DNA of 64,000 bases from IMG/VR virus record IMGVR_UViG_3300010381_000012; one strand, 5' to 3'. Made by a program: the position numbers and the translations under genes. The notes below the pieces were generated by a model. The model was not told the DNA's origin, did not search any database, and saw only the letters and a program-made list of their open reading frames with translations. Positions 3,087 through 31,196 of this stretch are shown one piece after another (position 1 is the first letter of the stretch; each line of letters starts with the position of its first letter). This DNA comes from a virus.

Positions 3087-3458
3087 CTATTCCCCCGGCA
3101 ACGGCGTCCATTCGTCACCGATCTTGAGCGGCCGAAAATCATGTTCCACGTCCACCCACCAGCATGGCGTGGCCCAATCACGGCTCAACCGGCCGGTGCT
3201 TTGATGGCCGACAAGATACACGCGCTCATCGCCGGGAAGCGTCCCCGGCGTTTCGTCGTAGGTTGTGCCGCGTGGGGTGCGAGGAAGAGCGTTCCAGGAC
3301 ATAATAGCTTCTTCCTCTGTTTCCTCGCATGGCCCTCGTAGGCCGCATTTTGTGCAACAAACATATTCAGCCATGGCCAAAGCAGATATGCGAACCTTGG
3401 CTTGGCCTCGACACTTTATGTTTGGGCACGGTTTCAGTTCATCCGGCATGGCGGGCAC
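3087..3458 (-). CDS. Lar-like (restriction alleviation) zinc-ribbon protein
   Basis: LKPCP..C....CCTKCG.RGP..ETEEEAIMSWN pattern typical of the Lar family. Confidence 0.65.
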   Translation of the reverse strand: MPAMPDELKPCPNIKCRGQAKVRISALAMAEYVCCTKCGLRGPCEETEEEAIMSWNALPRTPRGTTYDETPGTLPGDERVYLVGHQSTGRLSRDWATPCWWVDVEHDFRPLKIGDEWTPLPGE

Positions 3459-3693
3459 CCTCCTTATCCTTCCCCCTTACTCTAATCTCGCGCTCTATAA
3501 ACGCCGCGAATGTACGAAGCCGGCTGTGACCGCCAGCCTTGAGAAAGTTTGCAAGGTTGCCAATAGAGTCAGCAACAACCATTTGCTCTATCTCATGGGC
3601 CAGGTCATTGCCGTTTCGCGTTGCCTCCTGGAAGTTGAATGACGCGACACGACCGGACGGGAATCCGTAGGGCGTAACCTTCATTTCAGCCAT
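3439..3693 (-). CDS. Hypothetical phage protein
   Basis: ORF with GGAGG-type RBS in operon. Confidence 0.55.
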   Translation of the reverse strand: MAEMKVTPYGFPSGRVASFNFQEATRNGNDLAHEIEQMVVADSIGNLANFLKAGGHSRLRTFAAFIEREIRVRGKDKEGARHAG

Positions 3694-3702
3694 GACGGCC
3701 TC

Positions 3703-4104
3703 CTAGTAATATCCATTCGGATCGTGGAGCTTTGACGGCTTTAAGCGCTCTTCGAGTCCAGCGCATCTTGAGGCCAAGCGGTCGCGGTCCTGGCGCAACG
3801 CCGCGTTCTCGGCCTCCAGAGTGGCAATCTTGTTGGATTGCTCCATTCCCAGGTGGAAATAACGATCCCTCGCATCTTCCAACTCCCCGATGAATGCGGC
3901 TTCTTTCCCGGAAAGGATGGCCAGTATCAACCCTCGAAGCTGATTCGCCCGGCGCTCGCAAAGATCGTCATTTTTCATCTTGTATTCGTTCAAGGCCAAG
4001 TCGCGTTCATGGCGTCCAGCATCTTCGATGCGTTTTCGCTTGAGCCGATCCACCTCCGCCTCCAACTCCAGGATGCGCGCCTGGGCCTGTGCGAGGTCGG
4101 TCAT
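3703..4104 (-). CDS. Coiled-coil hypothetical protein
   Basis: MTDLAQAQARILELEAEVDRL; ATGA overlap with upstream stop. Confidence 0.65.
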   Translation of the reverse strand: MTDLAQAQARILELEAEVDRLKRKRIEDAGRHERDLALNEYKMKNDDLCERRANQLRGLILAILSGKEAAFIGELEDARDRYFHLGMEQSNKIATLEAENAALRQDRDRLASRCAGLEERLKPSKLHDPNGYY

Positions 4105-4785
4105 GGCTTTCCGACCCTCACTCCAACCGCCCACGCCCAGGACGTGTCCCAGTGGTAGCGGGTGCCGTATTTGGCGGTCCAGGTGTCGCGGAGCACGGTC
4201 AACGGCGACATGCCGCGCGTGCCAAGCGATGCGTCAGCTACACCGGATTTCTCGGCGTCCTCGTAGGTGATGCTGTTGCAGCGCACGCACCTCACCCCCA
4301 CGACCTCCAGCGTGATCCTGCTTGCCCAGGCCGGCATGGTGGCGGGGGAGCGCCATATTGCCTTGCCGTGTTCGGGATGAGGTGGCATTTCTCCGTCGGT
4401 CCTGTACGCGACGTAAGACAGACGGTTTGGTTGCGCCGGGATGCCCATTCGACCACGGACGGCACGAGTACGTTCCGGTGGGATCTCCTCGTCGAAAAAC
4501 TCTTGCCACACCTCCCGGCAGCGCAGCCGGTCACCGGGAGCGCCGAGGGGGCATTGCAGACCGTGTGACACCGCTTCATATCCGGTCACGTCCTTGTCCA
4601 TGGGAGCCTCGAAAACCCACGCGTCAGGCCCCCAAATAGAGTGGAACGAAGAAAGGTGAACGCTGGAGAAGTCGATATCCCTAAGACCCATGGGAAACCG
4701 CACCGGCCGCACGACCAGACCCAGCGCGCCCGCCAGCGCGGCGCGGACTTCGTGGGGGGTGGAGGATTAGGGATCGTGTGGTCAT
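4101..4785 (-). pseudogene. ASCH-like phage protein with a 1-nt frameshift in a G6 run (4754-4759)
   Basis: C-part has RLRCREVW and WRSPATMPAWASRITLEVVGVR..ITYEDA. An ATGA-coupled start at 4785 gives MTTRSLILHP, which joins HEVRAALAG only if one base is removed. Confidence 0.65.
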
Positions 4786-4973
4786 GCTGTCCCAGCCTCC
4801 TTGTAGAGGATCTCGTCAGCCATTTCCCTTGACGCTTGGGTGTATATCTCTCGTGCGCCTTTCGGGAGGGCTGCCAGGGGGACAACCACAAATTCGACGT
4901 GCCACTTCGCCAGCTTGTCGGCCACCTGGAGCTGCTCCCGGATAAAGGCCAAATTCGGTTTTTCGTCGGGCAT
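4782..4973 (-). CDS. Hypothetical phage protein
   Basis: AAGGAG RBS, MPDEKPNLAFIREQL. Confidence 0.6.
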   Translation of the reverse strand: MPDEKPNLAFIREQLQVADKLAKWHVEFVVVPLAALPKGAREIYTQASREMADEILYKEAGTA

Positions 4974-5194
4974 GTTCTTCTCCTTTTCGGCTTCAACCGA
5001 GACTGTGAAGCGACCGGGCGCGCTGCACTCCCTGTGGTTGCCCGGCTTCACGGACAGAGGGGGAAGCGGACCGACAACCGGCCAGGAAGCAGGAACCTGG
5101 GCTAGCCGCTGGCCATTGCGGCCCCTGCTACAGGTCGGGCATCGTTCCCCCGGTATGAAATCCCTGGCCGCACCTCACAGCCCCGGTAGAAGCC

Positions 5195-24142: not shown

Positions 24143-24270
24143 CCTTGGCCACGGCCGGATGCGCTCGGTTGCTAGGCTTCGACGTGCGCCTCGGGCCGCC
24201 GGCCCCGTTCTGGACAGATACACTGGCCGGCCCGGACCGCGTCCAGTCCGAGCCGCTGATTCGGAGGTAA
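24106..24270 (+). CDS. Small lipoprotein (o-spanin-like candidate)
   Basis: MRFLCALLAVVVALATAG-C lipobox, Pro-rich 54 aa; AGGAG RBS. Confidence 0.65.
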   Translation: MRFLCALLAVVVALATAGCARLLGFDVRLGPPAPFWTDTLAGPDRVQSEPLIRR

Positions 24271-25196
24271 TGGGCATGCGCATCGTTTCCTACGACGGCG
24301 GCGGGATAAAAGGCTACCTGCCGGCCATTGTCACGGCCGCCATGGAGTCGAGCACGGGGAAGCCAATGGGCATCATGGCCGACATGCTGGCCGGCACCTC
24401 CACCGGGGCGATTCTCGCGCTTGGCCTGGCTGCCGGTATCCCCGCCGGGGAGATGGCCAACTTCTACCGCGCCAAGGGCCCGGCCATCTTCCGGCGCTCC
24501 TGGGGTAAGCGGCTGCGGTCGTGCTTTGGCGTGGCGGATGAGCAGTACAGCAACGACGCGCTCCATGCTGGCCTGCGCGACATTTTCGGGGACAAGAAGC
24601 TCTCCGGCCTCGCCACCCCCTGCATGGCCGTGGCCTATGAGATCGAGACACGGCAGGTGCTCTTTTTCACGTCCTGGGACGCACAGCGTGATCCACACCG
24701 GGACTTCACGTTGGTTGACGTGGCCATGGCTTCGGCTGCGGCGCCCACGTACTTTGAACCATGGGCCGCGATGAGCGTCGCCGGCGACCGCCTTGCCTGC
24801 ATCGACGGCGGCGTGGCGGCCAATGACCCGGCGCAATGCGCCCTAGTCGAAGTGCTCAAGTATGGGTACGGGCTCGAGGGAATCTCCCTTGTATCACTCG
24901 GCACAGGCCAGGAAGATCGGGCCTACCTGCTCAAGCATGCCCGCAACTGGGGGCTCGCTGCCTGGGCCCGGCCGCTGCTCGATATCCTTTTCGCCGCGGC
25001 TTCCGACGTCACCGATCACCATTGCCGCCACATGCTTCCAGGCCGGTACGTGCGGCTCCAGCAGGATATGAGCGAGCCCGTGGGGATGGACCAGACGGAT
25101 GACCGAGCCTGGGCCGTCATGCGCATGTGCGCCAGGAAGATCGTGGAGCGGGATGAGTTCACGGCGGCCCGGAGGCTACTCAAAGGGGAGGCGTAG
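24270..25196 (+). CDS. Patatin-like phospholipase
   Basis: DGGGIKG oxyanion loop; GTSTG nucleophile; SAAAPTYF; DGG. Confidence 0.95.
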   Translation: MGMRIVSYDGGGIKGYLPAIVTAAMESSTGKPMGIMADMLAGTSTGAILALGLAAGIPAGEMANFYRAKGPAIFRRSWGKRLRSCFGVADEQYSNDALHAGLRDIFGDKKLSGLATPCMAVAYEIETRQVLFFTSWDAQRDPHRDFTLVDVAMASAAAPTYFEPWAAMSVAGDRLACIDGGVAANDPAQCALVEVLKYGYGLEGISLVSLGTGQEDRAYLLKHARNWGLAAWARPLLDILFAAASDVTDHHCRHMLPGRYVRLQQDMSEPVGMDQTDDRAWAVMRMCARKIVERDEFTAARRLLKGEA

Positions 25197-25198
25197 GC

Positions 25199-25453
25199 GT
25201 GGGTGAGGACGAGGTTAGGCGCATTGCCGAGGCTGTGGCGGCGGCTCTCACAAAAGAAGGGGCCGGGAAGTGCGGGGTGCCAACATGCTGCGCAAAATGT
25301 CCCATCTCCCCGGAAGAGCACGCCGAGCAGCATCGCGCCATGAAGGGAGCCTTGAAAATTCGATCCATCATCGTGGTCAAGATACTGGAATATGGAGCTA
25401 TTGTTATTGCAGTTTGGGCGCTGACCAGGATGGGATTCAAGGTCCCGCAGTAG
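25199..25453 (+). CDS. C-terminally anchored membrane protein
   Basis: C-terminal TM ILEYGAIVIAVWALT; end of lysis cassette. Confidence 0.65.
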   Translation: MGEDEVRRIAEAVAAALTKEGAGKCGVPTCCAKCPISPEEHAEQHRAMKGALKIRSIIVVKILEYGAIVIAVWALTRMGFKVPQ

Positions 25454-25780
25454 CCCAGGCAGGCCAAAACCTCGCGGCGGCTCCACCCGGCCGCCGATAT
25501 GCCCGGCAGGCCAAGTAAGTCCGGGCGAACGGATAAACGGGAACCTCTTTTTGGAAGGCGTGTGTCGAGTGGGTGAGCCTGCCCCGGGGGAAACTGTCGT
25601 TAAGCCCCGTCAACAACGATCGGCAGGCACCATGGTAGGCCCGATTATTTCGCGAGGAAGAGGCACAGGATATGGCCGGTTTCAGGGATTTCTAGGGGTG
25701 AATTGCGCCTTGAGCGTGAGCAAAATTTCGGCAGAGGCAACGAAATTCTCCGAAACAACCTCTTGGAGGAGGTGAAAGTC

Positions 25781-25909
25781 ATGGCGACCGCAATGCAGTC
25801 GGCAATCAACAAGGCGACCGGCGTTTCGCGCAACACCACGCGGGCCATCCGCAAGAACCAGCTTCGGACCGCCGCCCGGCGTAAGTCCCGGGGAGGCCAG
25901 GGAGGTTAA
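25781..25909 (+). CDS. Basic micropeptide A (42 aa, ends RGGQGG)
   Basis: Strong RBS GGAGGAGGTGA; MATAMQSAINKATGVSRNTTRAIRKNQLRTAARRKSRGGQGG. Confidence 0.75.
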   Translation: MATAMQSAINKATGVSRNTTRAIRKNQLRTAARRKSRGGQGG

Positions 25910-25915
25910 CCCACC

Positions 25916-26008
25916 ATGGGCAAGGTTATCGCTTCCATCTTGAACCGCCGTCGTGGCCAACTCAAAAAGGCGGCTACGCGTAAAACGCGCGGCGGCCAGG
26001 GAGGCTAA
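25916..26008 (+). CDS. Basic micropeptide B (30 aa, ends RGGQGG); absent from ORF track
   Basis: GGAGGT RBS; MGKVIASILNRRRGQLKKAATRKTRGGQGG; paralog of A. Confidence 0.75.
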   Translation: MGKVIASILNRRRGQLKKAATRKTRGGQGG

Positions 26009-26014
26009 CCGTCA

Positions 26015-26677
26015 ATGGCCGGACTCTACCTGTCCATACAGGCTGCGTCGGCCATCACCGACCGGGTCCTTGTCGGCGTCTCATGCGGCAAGGATTCGGT
26101 CGTTACTCTTGACCTGTGTGCTCGGAATTTCAAGCACGTTGAGGCCTTCTTCATGTACTACGTGAAGGGCCTTGAGTTTCAGGAAGCGGCTCTTCGGCAC
26201 TACGAAAAGCGCTACGGCATCAACATCCATCGTATCCCCCACTTCATGCTTTCGGAATGGCTCCGGTATGGAACATTCCGGCTTATGGACTTTGAAACGC
26301 CTATCGTTTCCGTTCGGGAGACTTACGATTACCTACGCGAGAAGACGGGAATATACTGGATAGCGTGCGGAGAGCGTATAGCCGATTCCGTCGTGCGCCG
26401 GGCGATGATTAAGCACTCAAGCAGTATCGATGAGGACAGGGGACGTTTCTACCCCGTGGCGGAATGGAAAAAGGCTGACGTCATGGCCTACATCAAGCAA
26501 CGCCGTCTGTTCCTTGGCCCTGAATCGGCAAAGCTTGGGTTTTCCTTTCGGTCGCTTATGCCCGTCGACCTCATGAAAATCAGAGAGCATTTCCCAGATG
26601 ATTTTAACCGCATCAAAGTCTGGTTCCCGCTCGTAGAGGCCAGCATCAAGCAATATGAGTACGCCCAAAATCAGTAA
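26015..26677 (+). CDS. PAPS-reductase-like PP-loop protein
   Basis: VLVGVSCGKDS PP-loop; GERIADSVVRR; FYPVAEW. Confidence 0.9.
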   Translation: MAGLYLSIQAASAITDRVLVGVSCGKDSVVTLDLCARNFKHVEAFFMYYVKGLEFQEAALRHYEKRYGINIHRIPHFMLSEWLRYGTFRLMDFETPIVSVRETYDYLREKTGIYWIACGERIADSVVRRAMIKHSSSIDEDRGRFYPVAEWKKADVMAYIKQRRLFLGPESAKLGFSFRSLMPVDLMKIREHFPDDFNRIKVWFPLVEASIKQYEYAQNQ

Positions 26678-27350
26678 ATTTCAGCGCTGCGACATCGAAA
26701 CGATCCAGCGCGACCAGATCCACGGCGCGCCGTACAACCCCCGCGTCATCAACGACGGCGCGAAGAAACGCTTGAAGAAGATGCTGCGGCAGCATGGGCT
26801 TGTGACCACGCTCGTCTGGAACAAGCGCACGGGAAACCTTGTCTCCGGCCACCAGCGGCTTGAAGCTCTCGACGCCCTAGAGGGGAGCCAAGACTACGCC
26901 CTACACGTGGCCGTCGTCGACGTGGATGCCAAGGAAGAGAAGAAACTCAACGTCCAGATGAACAATCCGTCCATGCAGGGCGAATGGGATTTGGACAAGC
27001 TGGCCGACATGGCCCTTGAAGACGACATCGGTTTTTCGGAGATGGGGTTTTCCGACGCTGATGCCGAGGTGCTTTTCGGCGGCGATTCCCGGCTTGCCGA
27101 CCTCTTCCATGACCCCGAAGAAGTGGCCGAGACGAAAGACACGCTGCGCGACATCAAGAAAGACCGTGCCGAAGCGACAGGGCGCTTAAAAGAGGCGCAA
27201 GGGGCCGGCTTTATCGTGACGGCTGTGGCTCAGGACGTGAACGAGAAAGAGGAGCTTTGCCGGGCGTTGGGCCTGCCGTCCTACGAGGAGTTTGTGCCGG
27301 CGGCTCTTATCCTGCGCAAGCTTGCGGCTGTTGGCGGCGCTGCGAAATGA
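26655..27350 (+). CDS. ParB/Srx N-terminal-domain protein
   Basis: YNPR..LVWNKRTGNLVSGHQRL. Confidence 0.9.
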   Translation: MSTPKISKFQRCDIETIQRDQIHGAPYNPRVINDGAKKRLKKMLRQHGLVTTLVWNKRTGNLVSGHQRLEALDALEGSQDYALHVAVVDVDAKEEKKLNVQMNNPSMQGEWDLDKLADMALEDDIGFSEMGFSDADAEVLFGGDSRLADLFHDPEEVAETKDTLRDIKKDRAEATGRLKEAQGAGFIVTAVAQDVNEKEELCRALGLPSYEEFVPAALILRKLAAVGGAAK

Positions 27351-27741
27351 ACTCCATGTGCGTGAAATCCTCGCTCGCTCCGGGCAACGGTCGCAAAAAC
27401 GGCGGCTCCAGGTTGAAGATGCGCTGCCGCCCCTTGACCGCGAACGGCTCGATTTCCCGCGCGTTGGCCAACACCCAGGCGAACCCGGCCGGGTTGGGCA
27501 TCTCATCGAGGCATGCCGCCGCCATGTCGCCAGCGACAAAGGGGCGCACGGCCACCAGTTCGACGACCGCCAGCGCATACCCACCCGGGGCCACGGCCCC
27601 CTCCTCCAGCAGGCAGTCCTTGGCGCTCGCGCAAATGAGCAGGTCGCCCCGGTGGCTGGTTTCCCACGAGCGGGCCTCGATGGTTTTTTCGCCCAAGGCG
27701 ACCAAAGAAGCCCAGGGCTGATAAATACTTATAGCTTTCAT
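27307..27741 (-). CDS. ASCH-domain protein
   Basis: AISIYQPWASLVALGEKTIEARSW. Confidence 0.92.
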   Translation of the reverse strand: MKAISIYQPWASLVALGEKTIEARSWETSHRGDLLICASAKDCLLEEGAVAPGGYALAVVELVAVRPFVAGDMAAACLDEMPNPAGFAWVLANAREIEPFAVKGRQRIFNLEPPFLRPLPGASEDFTHMEFISQRRQQPQACAG

Positions 27742-27747
27742 AAAAAG

Positions 27748-27776
27748 ACTATATCAAAATAAAGAAAGACTGTCAA
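27748..27776 (-). promoter_or_regulatory. Near-consensus sigma70 promoter for ASCH gene
   Basis: TTGACA (27776-71)-17-TATAGT (27753-48); predicted +1 coincides with the ATG. Confidence 0.7.
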
Positions 27777-28402
27777 TGCCAAGAAACCCAGATAAGAAGC
27801 GCTGCACAGCCACTTCCAAGCGGTCGGGTGAGCAGTGCAAAAACTGGGCTGTCCCTGGTAAAAACGTATGCCGGTTCCATGGCGGCAAAAGCAATGGCGC
27901 TCCTAAAAACAACAAAAACGCTCTCAAAACTGGAGCTTATGAGAGCATCCTTGTCGATACCATGGATGATGATGAAAAAAAGTATTTTGCATCCATACAG
28001 CCTGACCCACTCAAAGAGTGCGAAGAAAAGATAAGGCTCTTAAAAATTCGTGAACTGCGGATGATGCGACGGATTAAAGATTTGCGTGCCAAGGCGTCGC
28101 ATGGTGACAAGATGGCCATGGAGACGGTTGCTGCAAGTCAAACAAAGACGGAGACGACCAGCCAGGGCGGTGAAAAGACAACGGTCAAGTCGGCAACGGC
28201 GCAAACACGGTCGCCCGAGACGGCCATACTTGAGGTGGAAGAGGCGTTAACTCGGGTCCAAAATGAGCTAGGGCGTTGGGTGGATCGGTTGGCCAAGCTG
28301 CGGGCCGAGGGCGTTGGGGAAGACGAGAACGTGCCTGATCGGGTTGAAATCACAATTGTTGACGGGAGAAAGCCTTGTCCAGAACCGCAAAGCCAACCCT
28401 AA
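27776..28402 (+). CDS. terS: Terminase small subunit (HGGxSTG-type)
   Basis: RCTATSKRSGEQC..CRFHGGKS; precedes terL. Confidence 0.85.
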   Translation: MPRNPDKKRCTATSKRSGEQCKNWAVPGKNVCRFHGGKSNGAPKNNKNALKTGAYESILVDTMDDDEKKYFASIQPDPLKECEEKIRLLKIRELRMMRRIKDLRAKASHGDKMAMETVAASQTKTETTSQGGEKTTVKSATAQTRSPETAILEVEEALTRVQNELGRWVDRLAKLRAEGVGEDENVPDRVEITIVDGRKPCPEPQSQP

Positions 28403-29685
28403 ACTCTCCACAGTGGGATTTCTTGTCGCTGCCGCACAAATTCCGCGCCTTTGTGGGCGGGTTCGGGAGCGGGAAAACATATACGGGCTGTTCTGGTATG
28501 GCACGGCATTTCTGGGATTTCCCGGGTGTCCCATGCGGATACTTTGCGCCGACCTACCCCCAGATACGGGACATTTTTTACCCGACAGTCGAAGAATGTT
28601 TTGAGACATGGGGCCTGCGTACAGTCGTCAGAACTGGTACACACGAGGTAGATGTTTTTAAGGGCAGACGCAGTATAGGGAAAATCATTTGCCGCTCCAT
28701 GGACAATCCAGGGTCGATCATTGGTTTTAAGATAGGCCGCGCTCTTGTTGACGAATTGGACGTGTTGCCAACGGAAAAAGCCAAGCACGCTTGGAGAAAG
28801 ATCCTTGCCCGTCTGCGCTTCACCTCGCCAGGGTTAAAGAACGGCGTCGACGTGACAACAACCCCTGAAGGTTTCAGGTTTGTTCATGAGCAATTCGTCA
28901 AGGCCCCAAGAGGGAATGCGGCGCTACAGGCCCTTTATGGGCTTGTTCATGCTTCCACATATGACAATGAAGTCAACCTGCCGGAAGATTACATCCACTC
29001 CCTGCTTCAATCTTATCCTCCGCAGTTGATCGACGCCTACATAAACGGGAAATTTGTCAATCTCCAGACCGGCACGGTCTACATTGCTTATGACCGCGTG
29101 AAAAATGGCTGCACCGATATGCTCCAAGACGGTGAAGCCCTCTTCATCGGCATGGATTTCAATGTCGGGAAAATGGCCGCCGTCGTCCATGTGAAGCGCG
29201 ATGGTCTGCCCAGGGCCGTGGATGAGATTGTGGGGGGCTATGACACGCCCGACATGATCCGCCGGCTCAAGGAGCGCTTTTGGCGCTTCGACGGGCACAC
29301 CTATCAGCAGACGCGCCAGATTCGGGTTTACCCCGATGCCTCGGGCGATTCCCGGAAGTCGGTGAATGCCTCAGCCACCGACCTCGCCTTGCTCCGACAG
29401 GCCGGCTTCATTGTGTGCGCCCCTGCCGCGAATCCGCCTGTCAAGGACCGCGTGAACTCCATGAACGCGATGTTTCTCAACGCGAAGGGTGAGCGCCGCT
29501 ACCTCGTGAATGCCAACACCTGCCCGGCCTATGCCGACGCCCTGGAGCAACAGGCTTGGGCGACGAATGGAGAGCCGGACAAGACGACGGGACATGACCA
29601 CCCGGTCGATGCCGCCGGCTACTTCATCCACAAGGACTATCCGTTGGTTAAGCCCACCTTCTCCACCACCGAACTCCTCCTGTGA
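28375..29685 (+). CDS. terL: Terminase large subunit
   Basis: GGFGSGKT; VDE; GMDFN; YPDASG; HDHPVDA. Confidence 0.95.
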   Translation: MSRTAKPTLNSPQWDFLSLPHKFRAFVGGFGSGKTYTGCSGMARHFWDFPGVPCGYFAPTYPQIRDIFYPTVEECFETWGLRTVVRTGTHEVDVFKGRRSIGKIICRSMDNPGSIIGFKIGRALVDELDVLPTEKAKHAWRKILARLRFTSPGLKNGVDVTTTPEGFRFVHEQFVKAPRGNAALQALYGLVHASTYDNEVNLPEDYIHSLLQSYPPQLIDAYINGKFVNLQTGTVYIAYDRVKNGCTDMLQDGEALFIGMDFNVGKMAAVVHVKRDGLPRAVDEIVGGYDTPDMIRRLKERFWRFDGHTYQQTRQIRVYPDASGDSRKSVNASATDLALLRQAGFIVCAPAANPPVKDRVNSMNAMFLNAKGERRYLVNANTCPAYADALEQQAWATNGEPDKTTGHDHPVDAAGYFIHKDYPLVKPTFSTTELLL

Positions 29686-29693
29686 GGTTTGCC

Positions 29694-31196
29694 ATGTCCG
29701 ATACCAAGAAAGCCAACGTCAACACCCCTTCTTTCGCCTACAACGCCATGGAGCAGGCCCGGGAACTCCCCCGCACCCTCATGGGCGGCACGAGGGCCAT
29801 GCGCGAGGCCGGGCAGAAGTACCTTCCCCAGGAGCCGGCCGAAAGCGTCGAGGCCTATGACATCCGGCGGGAACGGTCGACCCTCTTCAACGCCTACAAG
29901 CAGGCGGTCCTCGATTATGTGGGCAAGGTGTTCTCGAAGCCCATTCACCCCAAGGAGGACGTCCCTGACGAGATCAGGGGATGGCTCGAGAACGTGGATC
30001 TGGCCGGGAACGACCTGAATGCTTTCGCCAAGGAGGTGTTCAAGGACGCTTCCTACGGCGTCTCCTACATCCTCGTCGATTTCCCGCGAATCCCTGCCGG
30101 CAGGAACTTGGAGGAAGAGCGCAAGGCCGGGGCCCGGCCCTATTGCGTCCACGTCCCCTGTCAAAACCTTATTGGCTGGAAGTCGGCGCGGATCGGCGGG
30201 GTGGAGACGTTGACTCAGGTCCGCATCCGGGAAACGAACGTGGAGGATGATGGGGAATGGGGGGAAAAGACCGTCAACCGGGTACGGGTACTGGATTTGA
30301 AGGATGGAGTTTGCACGTTCACGGTCTGGGAGGAGCAGCACAGCGCCACGGAAGGAAACACGTGGAAGATTAACCCAGACCTTTCCGGCGCCATGTCCAT
30401 CGGCTTCATCCCTATCGTGGCCGTCTATACCGAACGCACGGGCTTCATGTCCGGCGAACCGCCGCTTTCCGATCTGGCCGATCTAAACGCGCAGCACTGG
30501 CGGTCATCGAGCGACCAGGAAAACATCCTGCATGTAGCCCGGGTGCCGATCCTCTTCGGGAGCGGATTTCCAGAAGATGGTGGATCGCAAATGAATGTTG
30601 GAGCCGGTAGCTTCACCAAGACGCCGAGCGATACCGCCAAGCTCCAATATGTCGAGCACTCCGGGGCGGCCATCGAATCGGGCCGCGTCAGCATCCAGGA
30701 CATCGAGGACCGTATGGCCAAGGTGGCCATGGATCCTATGGTGCGCCGGCCGGGGACGGTGACGGCTACCGAAACCAGCGTCGGCACGGCCAAGGCGAGT
30801 TGCCCGCTCCAGGCTTGGGCCTGGGGGCTCCAGGATTCGCTTGAACTTACGCTGCAATACATGGGGGCATGGGTGGGAATCGCACCCGATGATTGCGGGG
30901 GCTTGGACGTGAATAGCGACTTTGGCCTGTCCATCACCGACATGACCCTGGCCGAGATGACCCAGGCGTATCAGGCCGGCCTGCTCTCGCGTCAAACTAT
31001 CTGGGCCGAGCTGCAGCGCAGGGGCCGGCTGTCGGACGACTTCGATGCCGAGGAAGAAATGGACCGCCTCATGACCGAGGCTCGCGACGGGACGATTCAG
31101 TCCGCGGCTACTCGGTTTCTGAATCCGGGTCTGGCTCCGGGAACCCCTCCAACTCCCGCTTCGGGCCCTCAACCCGGCCAAGGGGAACCTGCGTGA
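29694..31196 (+). CDS. Portal protein (DUF4055 type)
   Basis: YLPQEPAES..R..RSTLFNAY; PPLSDLADLNAQHW. Confidence 0.9.
   Translation: MSDTKKANVNTPSFAYNAMEQARELPRTLMGGTRAMREAGQKYLPQEPAESVEAYDIRRERSTLFNAYKQAVLDYVGKVFSKPIHPKEDVPDEIRGWLENVDLAGNDLNAFAKEVFKDASYGVSYILVDFPRIPAGRNLEEERKAGARPYCVHVPCQNLIGWKSARIGGVETLTQVRIRETNVEDDGEWGEKTVNRVRVLDLKDGVCTFTVWEEQHSATEGNTWKINPDLSGAMSIGFIPIVAVYTERTGFMSGEPPLSDLADLNAQHWRSSSDQENILHVARVPILFGSGFPEDGGSQMNVGAGSFTKTPSDTAKLQYVEHSGAAIESGRVSIQDIEDRMAKVAMDPMVRRPGTVTATETSVGTAKASCPLQAWAWGLQDSLELTLQYMGAWVGIAPDDCGGLDVNSDFGLSITDMTLAEMTQAYQAGLLSRQTIWAELQRRGRLSDDFDAEEEMDRLMTEARDGTIQSAATRFLNPGLAPGTPPTPASGPQPGQGEPA

Follow-up and report, generated by a model that had tools for sequence, protein, structure and literature searches.

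In a 64,000-nucleotide stretch of viral DNA (IMG/VR virus record IMGVR_UViG_3300010381_000012; hereafter the window), we found that the gene for a PP-loop ATP pyrophosphatase resembling PAPS reductases is preceded by genes for two tiny basic peptides ending in Gly-Gly, and followed by genes for a ParB-CTPase/Srx-fold protein and an ASCH-domain protein. Peptides, enzyme, ParB-fold protein and ASCH protein form a four-part module heading the packaging operon, and in many phages the peptide family accompanies the PP-loop/ParB pair. We are almost certain that the peptides are real genes, and a functional link between them and the enzyme is very probable. Our favoured reading, to which we give a little less than an even chance, is that the peptides are a dedicated partner of the enzyme, which would activate their C-terminal tail. 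In the window the module is laid out as follows.

25765-25775, + strand: Shine-Dalgarno GGAGGAGGTGA, read from the sequence; the ATG of peptide 1 lies 5 nt further on
25781-25909, + strand: Gly-tailed basic peptide 1, 42 amino acids (aa), sequence MATAMQSAINKATGVSRNTTRAIRKNQLRTAARRKSRGGQGG, C-terminal RRKSRGGQGG
25916-26008, + strand: Gly-tailed basic peptide 2, 30 aa, sequence MGKVIASILNRRRGQLKKAATRKTRGGQGG, a shortened paralogue with the C-terminal QLxxAAxRKTRGGQGG module only
25879-25919 and 25978-26018 (25879-26018 overall), + strand: two 41-nt repeat arms of a tandem duplication, from direct-repeat comparison
26015-26677, + strand: PP-loop ATP pyrophosphatase, PAPS-reductase-like, 220 aa (PF01507, E 1.5e-10; phrog_424; PP-loop SCGKDS)
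26655-27350, + strand: ParB-CTPase/Srx-fold protein, 231 aa (phrog_9353, 5e-58; phrog_620, 5e-24; phrog_498)
27307-27741, - strand: ASCH-domain protein, 144 aa (PF04266, E 2e-9; phrog_3193)

A first-pass annotation of this DNA had already picked out the two small open reading frames (ORFs) and their common ending QLxxAAxRK[ST]RGGQGG, and both are indeed present in the sequence as it described them. It had also pointed to synonymous codon differences between the paralogues, which counts over the 16 shared C-terminal codons bear out: we found 11.5 synonymous changes in 13.8 sites (pS, the synonymous proportion, ~0.83) and 5.5 non-synonymous changes in 34.2 sites (pN, its non-synonymous counterpart, ~0.16). 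Each peptide has the ribosome-binding site (RBS) assigned to it, namely GGAGGAGGTGA for peptide 1 and, for peptide 2, the GGAGG within the last codons of peptide 1; the GGAGG within the last codons of peptide 2 is in turn the Shine-Dalgarno of the enzyme gene. Likewise, the matches to PF01507 and to PHROGs agree with the annotated order of a PAPS-reductase-like enzyme (SCGKDS) and then a ParB-like protein downstream.

The two 41-nt repeat arms are 78% identical and 99 nt apart, and each takes in a peptide tail with its stop codon as well as the spacer and ATG that follow. We conclude from this direct repeat and its spacing that the two peptides originated by tandem duplication; two tandem peptide copies are also found at one of the related loci (L012). 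Moreover, the PP-loop gene shares its reading frame with both peptides, and only TAA and two sense codons part each ORF from the next; the 99-nt duplication explains this. Read-through fusion of peptides and enzyme as a general feature was considered and rejected, given that the relative frames split 25, 12 and 9 in 46 loci.

Both peptides have an isoelectric point (pI) of ~12, contain no acidic residues, and are low in complexity and predicted to be disordered. Peptide 1, with a net charge of ~+9.5 and the N-terminal motif INKATGVSRNTTRA, is a member of the family described below and carries both of its conserved motifs, as judged from an alignment of the peptides (A3) and from profile matches. 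No family match to either peptide was obtained in Pfam, PHROGs and NCBIfam scans, and a tblastn search of cultured phages with peptide 1 as query returned nothing. Look-alikes of this peptide in the ESM Atlas were only unnamed small clusters, with scores of at most 0.81, below the level of trust.

The evidence that these peptides are conserved genes comes from the DNA upstream of 64 distinct close homologues of the enzyme (44-70% identity), taken from viral contigs and genomes. In 53 of the 64, a small basic ORF with its own strong RBS and a Gly-Gly end, usually GGxGG, lies directly upstream of the enzyme gene, its stop codon a median of 14 nt before it. A further nine loci have a Gly within the last three residues of the upstream ORF, with ends such as GGH, GGE, KGN or NAG. 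The first-pass annotation would have been refuted had such peptides been lacking at homologous loci, or had only the GGAGG nucleotides been kept, and neither is the case. Among ORFs of 25-90 aa in the related loci ~2.7% end in GG, and nearly all of these are members of the family; the Gly-Gly pattern is far beyond chance.

The homologous peptide genes share the same type of strong RBS (AAAGGAGGTGA...). The last two codons of the 42 unique Gly-Gly genes are mostly GGC or GGT, with GGG and GGA also occurring, and GGAGG is present near the stop codon in only four of the 42, the lineage of the window among them. The earlier caveat that the Gly-Gly codons double as the next RBS thus holds in the window but not in general, and the doubling is a trait of this lineage. 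The Gly-Gly end is conserved at the protein level and is no by-product of the RBS of the next gene. Furthermore, pN/pS in close pairs of peptide genes was 0.02/0.355, 0.013/0.221 and 0.159/0.574. Across the informative close pairs, non-synonymous change runs at ~0.06-0.6 of the synonymous rate, which indicates purifying selection on the translated product.

Members of the family are 27-66 aa long, rich in Arg, Gly and Ser, and show no hydrophobic core pattern. They share an N-terminal xINRxTGVNR and a C-terminal RRKSxGGxGG motif, both kept across relatives of 25-60% identity. In alignment A3, G41 does not vary and G42 is conserved to at least 90%, and the most conserved positions are the four tail glycines together with one N-terminal Gly. 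The module of ASCH, ParB-fold, PP-loop and peptide genes recurs in nearly all of the 80 related loci, with the ASCH gene on either side or strand.

A reciprocal search, in which a profile built from 32 of the peptides (A3) was run against 1.84 billion representative proteins (E up to 1e-3), led back to the same neighbourhood. It returned 25 matches, all of 40-60 aa and 24 of them aligned right to the C-terminus, with the consensus MAxxIQRRINxxTGVNRxxxR...RN.[FY]RRKSxGGxGG. We looked up the genomic context of four of these matches: in three a PF01507 gene comes next, followed by a gene in the ParB position and then by ASCH and/or terminase genes, and in the fourth the contig ends just past the peptide gene.

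The module also occurs in cultured phages, with Riemerella phage RAP44 a further candidate carrier. More distant and cultured phages keep the tail on other proteins. The genes concerned in two of them are the following.

Lactobacillus phage JNU_P7 (L092), 3169-3540, 3543-3965 and 4757-5056: annotated genes for 'hypothetical proteins' ending GSKGG or GSRGG
Pasteurella phage Pm86 (L096), 4628-4765 and 4778-4876: unannotated small basic ORFs between ORF52 (hypothetical, after the PP-loop gene) and ORF53 (upstream of the large terminase gene)

In JNU_P7 no micropeptide lies upstream of the enzyme; its place is taken by three basic proteins of 92-140 aa encoded around the enzyme and ParB genes, only ~21-27% identical to each other and all with the Gly-Gly end given above. 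The orthologue in L. reuteri prophage LR1 ends GKSSG, and neither in JNU_P7 nor in LR1 do these larger Gly-tailed proteins match a family in Pfam, PHROGs or NCBIfam. Bacteroides phage BS-TP2 has an annotated 53-aa protein, gp53, encoded immediately before the enzyme and with the ending GSNG. The two tandem ORFs of Pm86 end ...ARSSGS and ...SRSSGS, and the pair looks like a Ser/Gly-tailed variant of the same peptide arrangement. Actinophage versions have small basic Gly/Ser-rich neighbours, and gp173 of Gordonia phage Morgana ends ...SGDS. Since the tails are kept while the protein bodies change, what stays constant is that a basic protein encoded beside the enzyme ends in small residues, usually Gly-Gly.

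Some further observations concern the partner genes of these phages. The ParB gene of JNU_P7 is annotated in two pieces (3968-4279 and 4337-4666) and may be split or frameshifted in the record. In the actinophages Morgana (L103, 3139-3840) and Cutibacterium phage CA1NRNZ (L104, 3171-3533), a PAPS-reductase-like gene is followed by a conserved non-ParB protein with the shared motif (E/F)HWVA(I/A)CF, and a small basic Gly/Ser-rich ORF lies near this gene pair. These neighbours may represent an alternative partner set.

The PP-loop of the enzyme, S23-x-G25-K26-D27-S28, is intact. An alignment of 54 sequences shows no change at K26 and S28 and at least 90% conservation at S23, G25 and D33; in a nine-sequence enzyme alignment, D27 does not vary. 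Its AlphaFold model (pLDDT, the per-residue confidence, 94.6) shows a Rossmann-like PP-loop fold with the SGGxDS-type loop at the N-terminus of helix 1, as in PP-loop ATP pyrophosphatases, and PF01507 is the only domain that Pfam finds in it. Structural comparison gave tied matches (Z 13-15) to the 'PAPS' domain of human FAD synthase, MesJ/TilS, CysD, GMP synthase, LarE, TtuA and APS/PAPS reductases; TilS was the top Foldseek match, and the TtuA-TtuB complex (5gha), NcsA and LarE were also among the matches. The enzyme family is basic, with a median pI of 9.2.

The catalytic Cys of CysH lies in a C-terminal ECG[LI]H-type motif. In the enzyme family only one Cys, C35 on helix 1, is near-invariant, and the C-terminal half has none; the family is thus without the catalytic Cys of CysH, the three-Cys Fe-S site and the Cys dyad of DndC. 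A PAPS/APS reductase (CysH) is ruled out by the missing C-terminal Cys and by scores far under the NCBIfam equivalog cut-offs (26.6 bits against 154 for PRK02090, 20.6 against 235 for TIGR02055), and a TtuA/NcsA-type Fe-S tRNA thiolase, which has three conserved Cys, was likewise rejected. Going by its residues and these scores, we regard the 'PAPS reductase' label of this enzyme as a mis-annotation.

The ParB-fold protein, whose gene start overlaps the enzyme gene by 23 nt, has the N-domain fold and the GxxRxxA nucleotide-binding motif of the ParB-CTPase/Srx proteins, and G65-H66-Q67-R68 is invariant in 39 sequences (A4). In Foldseek, its N-terminal domain matched ParB with bound cytidine diphosphate (CDP; 6sdk, E 7e-7), as well as Noc, KorB, PadC and sulfiredoxin, and the matched ParB-type structures are bound to CDP or cytidine triphosphate. 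Canonical partition ParB proteins combine a helix-turn-helix domain that binds parS with a C-terminal domain for dimerisation and work with ParA; Pfam found no ParB or helix-turn-helix match in the window protein, and no ParA gene is adjacent. The C-terminal half (residues 111-231) is helical, modelled with low confidence, and acidic (27 Asp and Glu against 14 Lys and Arg, pI 4.35, net charge ~-13), with an invariant G131-F132 in an MGF motif and nearly invariant D136 and F141. The +9 peptides may dock on this half, or it may mimic DNA. The ParB-CTPase fold recurs in phages fused to DNA methyltransferases (phrog_498; PMC12704722).

The ASCH gene, which the first-pass annotation had missed, lies on the minus strand between the ParB-fold gene and that of the terminase small subunit; it is convergent with the former, and their 3' ends overlap by 44 nt (27307-27350). 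Its product has the intact octapeptide GxKxxExR, as GEKTIEAR, the Lys, Glu and Arg of which are kept in all 59 of 59 unique homologues, and gave sequence matches in the PDB to the ASCH domain of TRIP4 and to TTHA0113. ASCH proteins have been described as N4-acylcytidine amidohydrolases, with the Lys and Glu essential for N4-acetylcytidine deacetylation (bioRxiv 10.64898/2026.02.27.708502).

PP-loop enzymes AMPylate a first substrate, which is then attacked by a second one (PMC13376578). Since all but one of the near-invariant glycines of the peptides lie in a C-terminal GGxGG, the simplest reading is that the terminal carboxylate would be the AMPylated first substrate and that an amine would then capture it. 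Under this model, the Gly-Gly tail would enter the PP-loop active site, its carboxylate would be AMPylated, and the acyl-adenylate would be passed to an acceptor. We favour as acceptor the exocyclic amine of a base in phage DNA, with the ParB-fold protein possibly serving in DNA loading or targeting and the ASCH protein reading or hydrolysing the N-acyl base so formed; alternatively, the acceptor might be a protein lysine or ammonia (leading to C-terminal amidation). A nucleic-acid base is weakly hinted at by the ParB partner, the basic enzyme and the ASCH partner, and a precedent for making an N4-acylcytidine from a carboxylate and ATP is TmcAL, which produces N4-acetylcytidine (ac4C) from acetate and ATP (PMC13602947). 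Even so, DNA as the acceptor is unlikely in our estimate. Slightly less likely again is the scheme as a whole: an E1-independent phage tagging system in which the enzyme would AMPylate the C-terminal Gly of protamine-like peptides and ligate them to exocyclic amines in the phage's own DNA, a peptidyl-DNA hypermodification that would take place just before packaging, with the ParB-fold protein loading the enzyme and the ASCH protein acting as the matching N-acyl-base amidohydrolase, that is, as eraser or proof-reader. The position of the genes is what suggests the link to packaging.

The first-pass annotation had likewise proposed a peptide-activation or ligation system, acting on phage DNA or virion proteins at packaging, on the model of ubiquitin- and ThiS-like carriers. 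The part of it that stands is that the peptides are real, conserved and tied to the PP-loop/ParB pair; the carrier analogy, on the other hand, is weak, because the peptides are low-complexity, predicted to be disordered and of 30-60 aa, and the module has no E1-like gene.

Several points weigh against tail activation by the enzyme, or against the DNA scheme built on it. At two of the 64 close loci (L020 and L082) no Gly tail is found upstream, and the members ending GGH, GGE, KGN or NAG would require a strictly terminal-Gly chemistry to involve trimming or to tolerate extra residues. We infer the entry of the tail into the active site, and the tied structure matches cannot tell the PP-loop subfamilies apart. 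The enzyme, being itself basic, would exert no electrostatic pull on a +9 peptide, and the acidic C-terminal half of the ParB-fold protein is an equally plausible peptide-binding partner. Moreover, the Gly-Lys-Glu-Arg pattern is a general ASCH signature and not specific to amidohydrolases, and ParB-fold proteins also have non-DNA roles, as in sulfiredoxin. Structure prediction of the complex of enzyme (A2), peptide (A3) and ATP gave a score of 0.00, with the peptide's own fold at pLDDT <50, and counts neither for nor against tail binding.

The sequence data bear on four other explanations. One is that there are no peptide genes at all and that a regulatory or ribosome-binding DNA repeat accidentally holds the frames, as the GGAGG in the last codons of the window peptides, serving as the RBS of the next gene, might suggest. 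We consider this already refuted by the rarity of GGAGG in the homologues (four of 42), by the strong synonymous excess, by amino-acid motifs kept across relatives of 25-60% identity, and by the peptide-only profile search, whose 25 relatives have PF01507 next to them wherever a contig that was looked up continued. Nor did the 330-nt leader with the peptide region match an RNA family in Rfam or fold into a stable structure (z = +1.3). The peptides could also be autonomous nucleic-acid binders that condense DNA for packaging in the manner of protamines, or bind RNA through an arginine-rich motif and so regulate the late operon, and that are merely co-transcribed with an enzyme acting alone on DNA or on a small molecule. 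Their pI of ~12, lack of acidic residues and predicted disorder would suit such a role, as would the position of their genes as the first cistrons of the packaging operon, and the acidic half of the ParB-fold protein could chaperone them. However, in phages of Desulfovibrio-like, Lactobacillus, Bacteroides and Pasteurella hosts alike the peptides show strict synteny with the enzyme, even though its other neighbours vary, and the profile matches looked up all lie beside PF01507 wherever the contig reached. In addition, conservation peaks at the four tail glycines and one N-terminal Gly and not in the basic body, and the unrelated bodies in JNU_P7 have only the tail in common. We therefore regard autonomous binding as unlikely.

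The remaining two explanations keep the enzyme and the peptides together and change the chemistry. Should the peptides be sulfur carriers, their Gly-Gly would be converted to a thiocarboxylate as in TtuB, Urm1 and ThiS, and the enzyme would thiolate DNA or RNA like TtuA, NcsA or DndC. The GG ending and the structure matches to TtuA-TtuB, NcsA and LarE are compatible with this idea, and the enzyme family is related to DndC and BrxP, DndB being a ParB-fold partner of DndC (PMC10853773, PMC12839542). It is nonetheless quite improbable, as no E1-like enzyme, cysteine desulfurase or rhodanese is encoded in the module, C35 as the only near-invariant Cys leaves neither a three-Cys Fe-S site nor a DndC-type dyad, and a beta-grasp fold would require longer sequences of higher complexity than these peptides have. 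Alternatively, the peptide might be the nucleophilic second substrate: the enzyme would AMPylate a nucleobase carbonyl or a carboxylate (cf. TilS, QueC and Cap9), and the N-terminus or a Lys amine of the peptide would attack. In favour of this, Foldseek ranks TilS first, a protein N-terminal Gly is used in this way by Cap9 and QatC (PMC13376578), and most of the peptides begin with MA or MG, so that removal of Met would expose a small N-terminal residue. Against this, the N-terminus is variable (MA, MG, MS, MP, MD, ME, MN, MR) and no Lys is invariant, RRKS being replaced by RRVS, RRIS, RRAS or RRRS; the near-invariant residues cluster in the four glycines of the C-terminal tail, with a single N-terminal Gly as the only other one. 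We give a nucleophilic peptide little credence, much as we do a sulfur carrier.

Beyond the module, the window shows the following features downstream.

27748-27776, - strand: sigma-70-like promoter toward the ASCH gene (TTGACA, 17-nt spacer, TATAGT, with TG), by consensus match only
27776-28402, + strand: terminase small subunit
28375-29685, + strand: terminase large subunit
29682-31196, + strand: portal

The near-consensus sigma-70 promoter of the ASCH gene lies inside the intergenic region between that gene and the gene of the terminase small subunit. With a promoter of its own and a convergent 3' overlap, the ASCH gene may follow another expression schedule than the late operon, for example in a lysogen. 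On the other side of the module, positions 24159-25453 contain a patatin-like phospholipase gene (PF01734, E 1.3e-27) and a Cys-rich, membrane-anchored ORF of 84 aa, directly followed by the 330-nt leader of the peptide genes. GGA/TCC is not depleted around the module, with 26-44 occurrences per kb between 20 and 29.5 kb and a window mean of 38.8.

'PAPS reductase' and 'ParB-like nuclease' genes are a recurrent pair at the heads of phage packaging operons, often counted as a sulfur 'auxiliary metabolic gene'. The pair itself is already known but unexplained, and full-text literature searches turned up no account of Gly-tailed peptides alongside it. A dedicated Gly-tailed peptide shifts the question from sulfur metabolism to a peptide-activating or -conjugating reaction, and the finding exposes both a systematic mis-annotation and overlooked small genes. 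If our favoured reading is correct and the acceptor is DNA, the module would represent a new class of DNA hypermodification, with a bearing on the evasion of restriction and other defences; with a protein acceptor, it would be a minimal ubiquitin-like tagging without E1, E2 and E3. Either way, it would extend the recent theme of PP-loop enzymes that act on protein tails.

Considering known systems, the precursor of microcin C-like peptide adenylates ends in Asn and is processed by the E1-like enzyme MccB. Such a system was rejected here, since the tails end in Gly and there is no E1-like gene. The Dnd/Ssp phosphorothioation systems, which are defined by the DndC Cys dyad together with DndA, DndD and DndE (PMC10853773), were rejected too, as the dyad is missing and no desulfurase, SMC-like or DndE gene lies next to the module.

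The phage ParB-domain::DNA methyltransferase fusions beside terminase (phrog_498) likewise couple a ParB-CTPase fold to a nucleic-acid-modifying enzyme at the head of a packaging operon (PMC12704722). Here, however, the catalytic partner is a separate PP-loop enzyme with a proposed peptide co-substrate and not an S-adenosylmethionine-dependent methyltransferase. For the chemistry, TmcAL and the ASCH ac4C amidohydrolases provide a precedent both for the transfer of an ATP-activated carboxylate to cytosine N4 and for N4-acyl hydrolysis (PMC13602947; bioRxiv 10.64898/2026.02.27.708502). TmcAL differs in that it is not a PP-loop enzyme, its donor is acetate and its acceptor is tRNA, whereas the donor would here be a peptidyl-glycyl group and the acceptor DNA.

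The same pairing of a PAPS-reductase-like with a ParB-like protein is found in YbdN/YbdM of E. coli K-12, the biochemical function of which is unexplained; YbdN has an extra DUF3440 domain (PMC9068703), whereas the window enzyme consists of PF01507 only. The phage genes annotated as 'PAPS reductase' and 'ParB-like nuclease' are paired in the same way. IbrA/IbrB are presumably a pair of the same kind.

With ubiquitin-like and ThiS/MoaD proteins the peptides share the C-terminal Gly-Gly, but at 27-66 aa they lack the beta-grasp fold of ~70-100 aa, and neither in the window nor in the 80 related loci do the module genes include an adjacent E1-like (ThiF/MoeB) enzyme. In the tRNA-thiolation systems TtuA-TtuB and Ncs6/NcsA-Urm1, a PP-loop enzyme takes the C-terminal Gly-Gly of a small carrier protein, and 5gha is among the fold matches of our enzyme. 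They nevertheless use a beta-grasp carrier, E1-like activation and a [4Fe-4S] cluster on three Cys, whereas the phage module has neither an E1-like gene nor a Cys triad.

A closer precedent than ubiquitin or ThiS is offered by Cap9-CdnD of the type IV CBASS 'deazaguanylation' system and by QatC-QatB of the QatABCD defence system, in which the PP-loop active site takes in a partner's flexible glycine tail, and this tail is covalently conjugated (PMC13376578). As in the phage module, a PP-loop enzyme is encoded beside a glycine-tailed partner. Cap9 and QatC are, however, QueC-like enzymes with a zinc motif, encoded by bacterial defence genes, and they use an N-terminal Gly2 tail as amine nucleophile, whereas residue 2 of our peptides may be A, G, S, P, D, E, N or R. 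The module described here instead combines an enzyme of a PAPS-reductase-like clade with tiny basic peptides whose C-terminal Gly-Gly would present a carboxylate, the likely first substrate, and it is encoded by phages together with ParB-fold and ASCH proteins.

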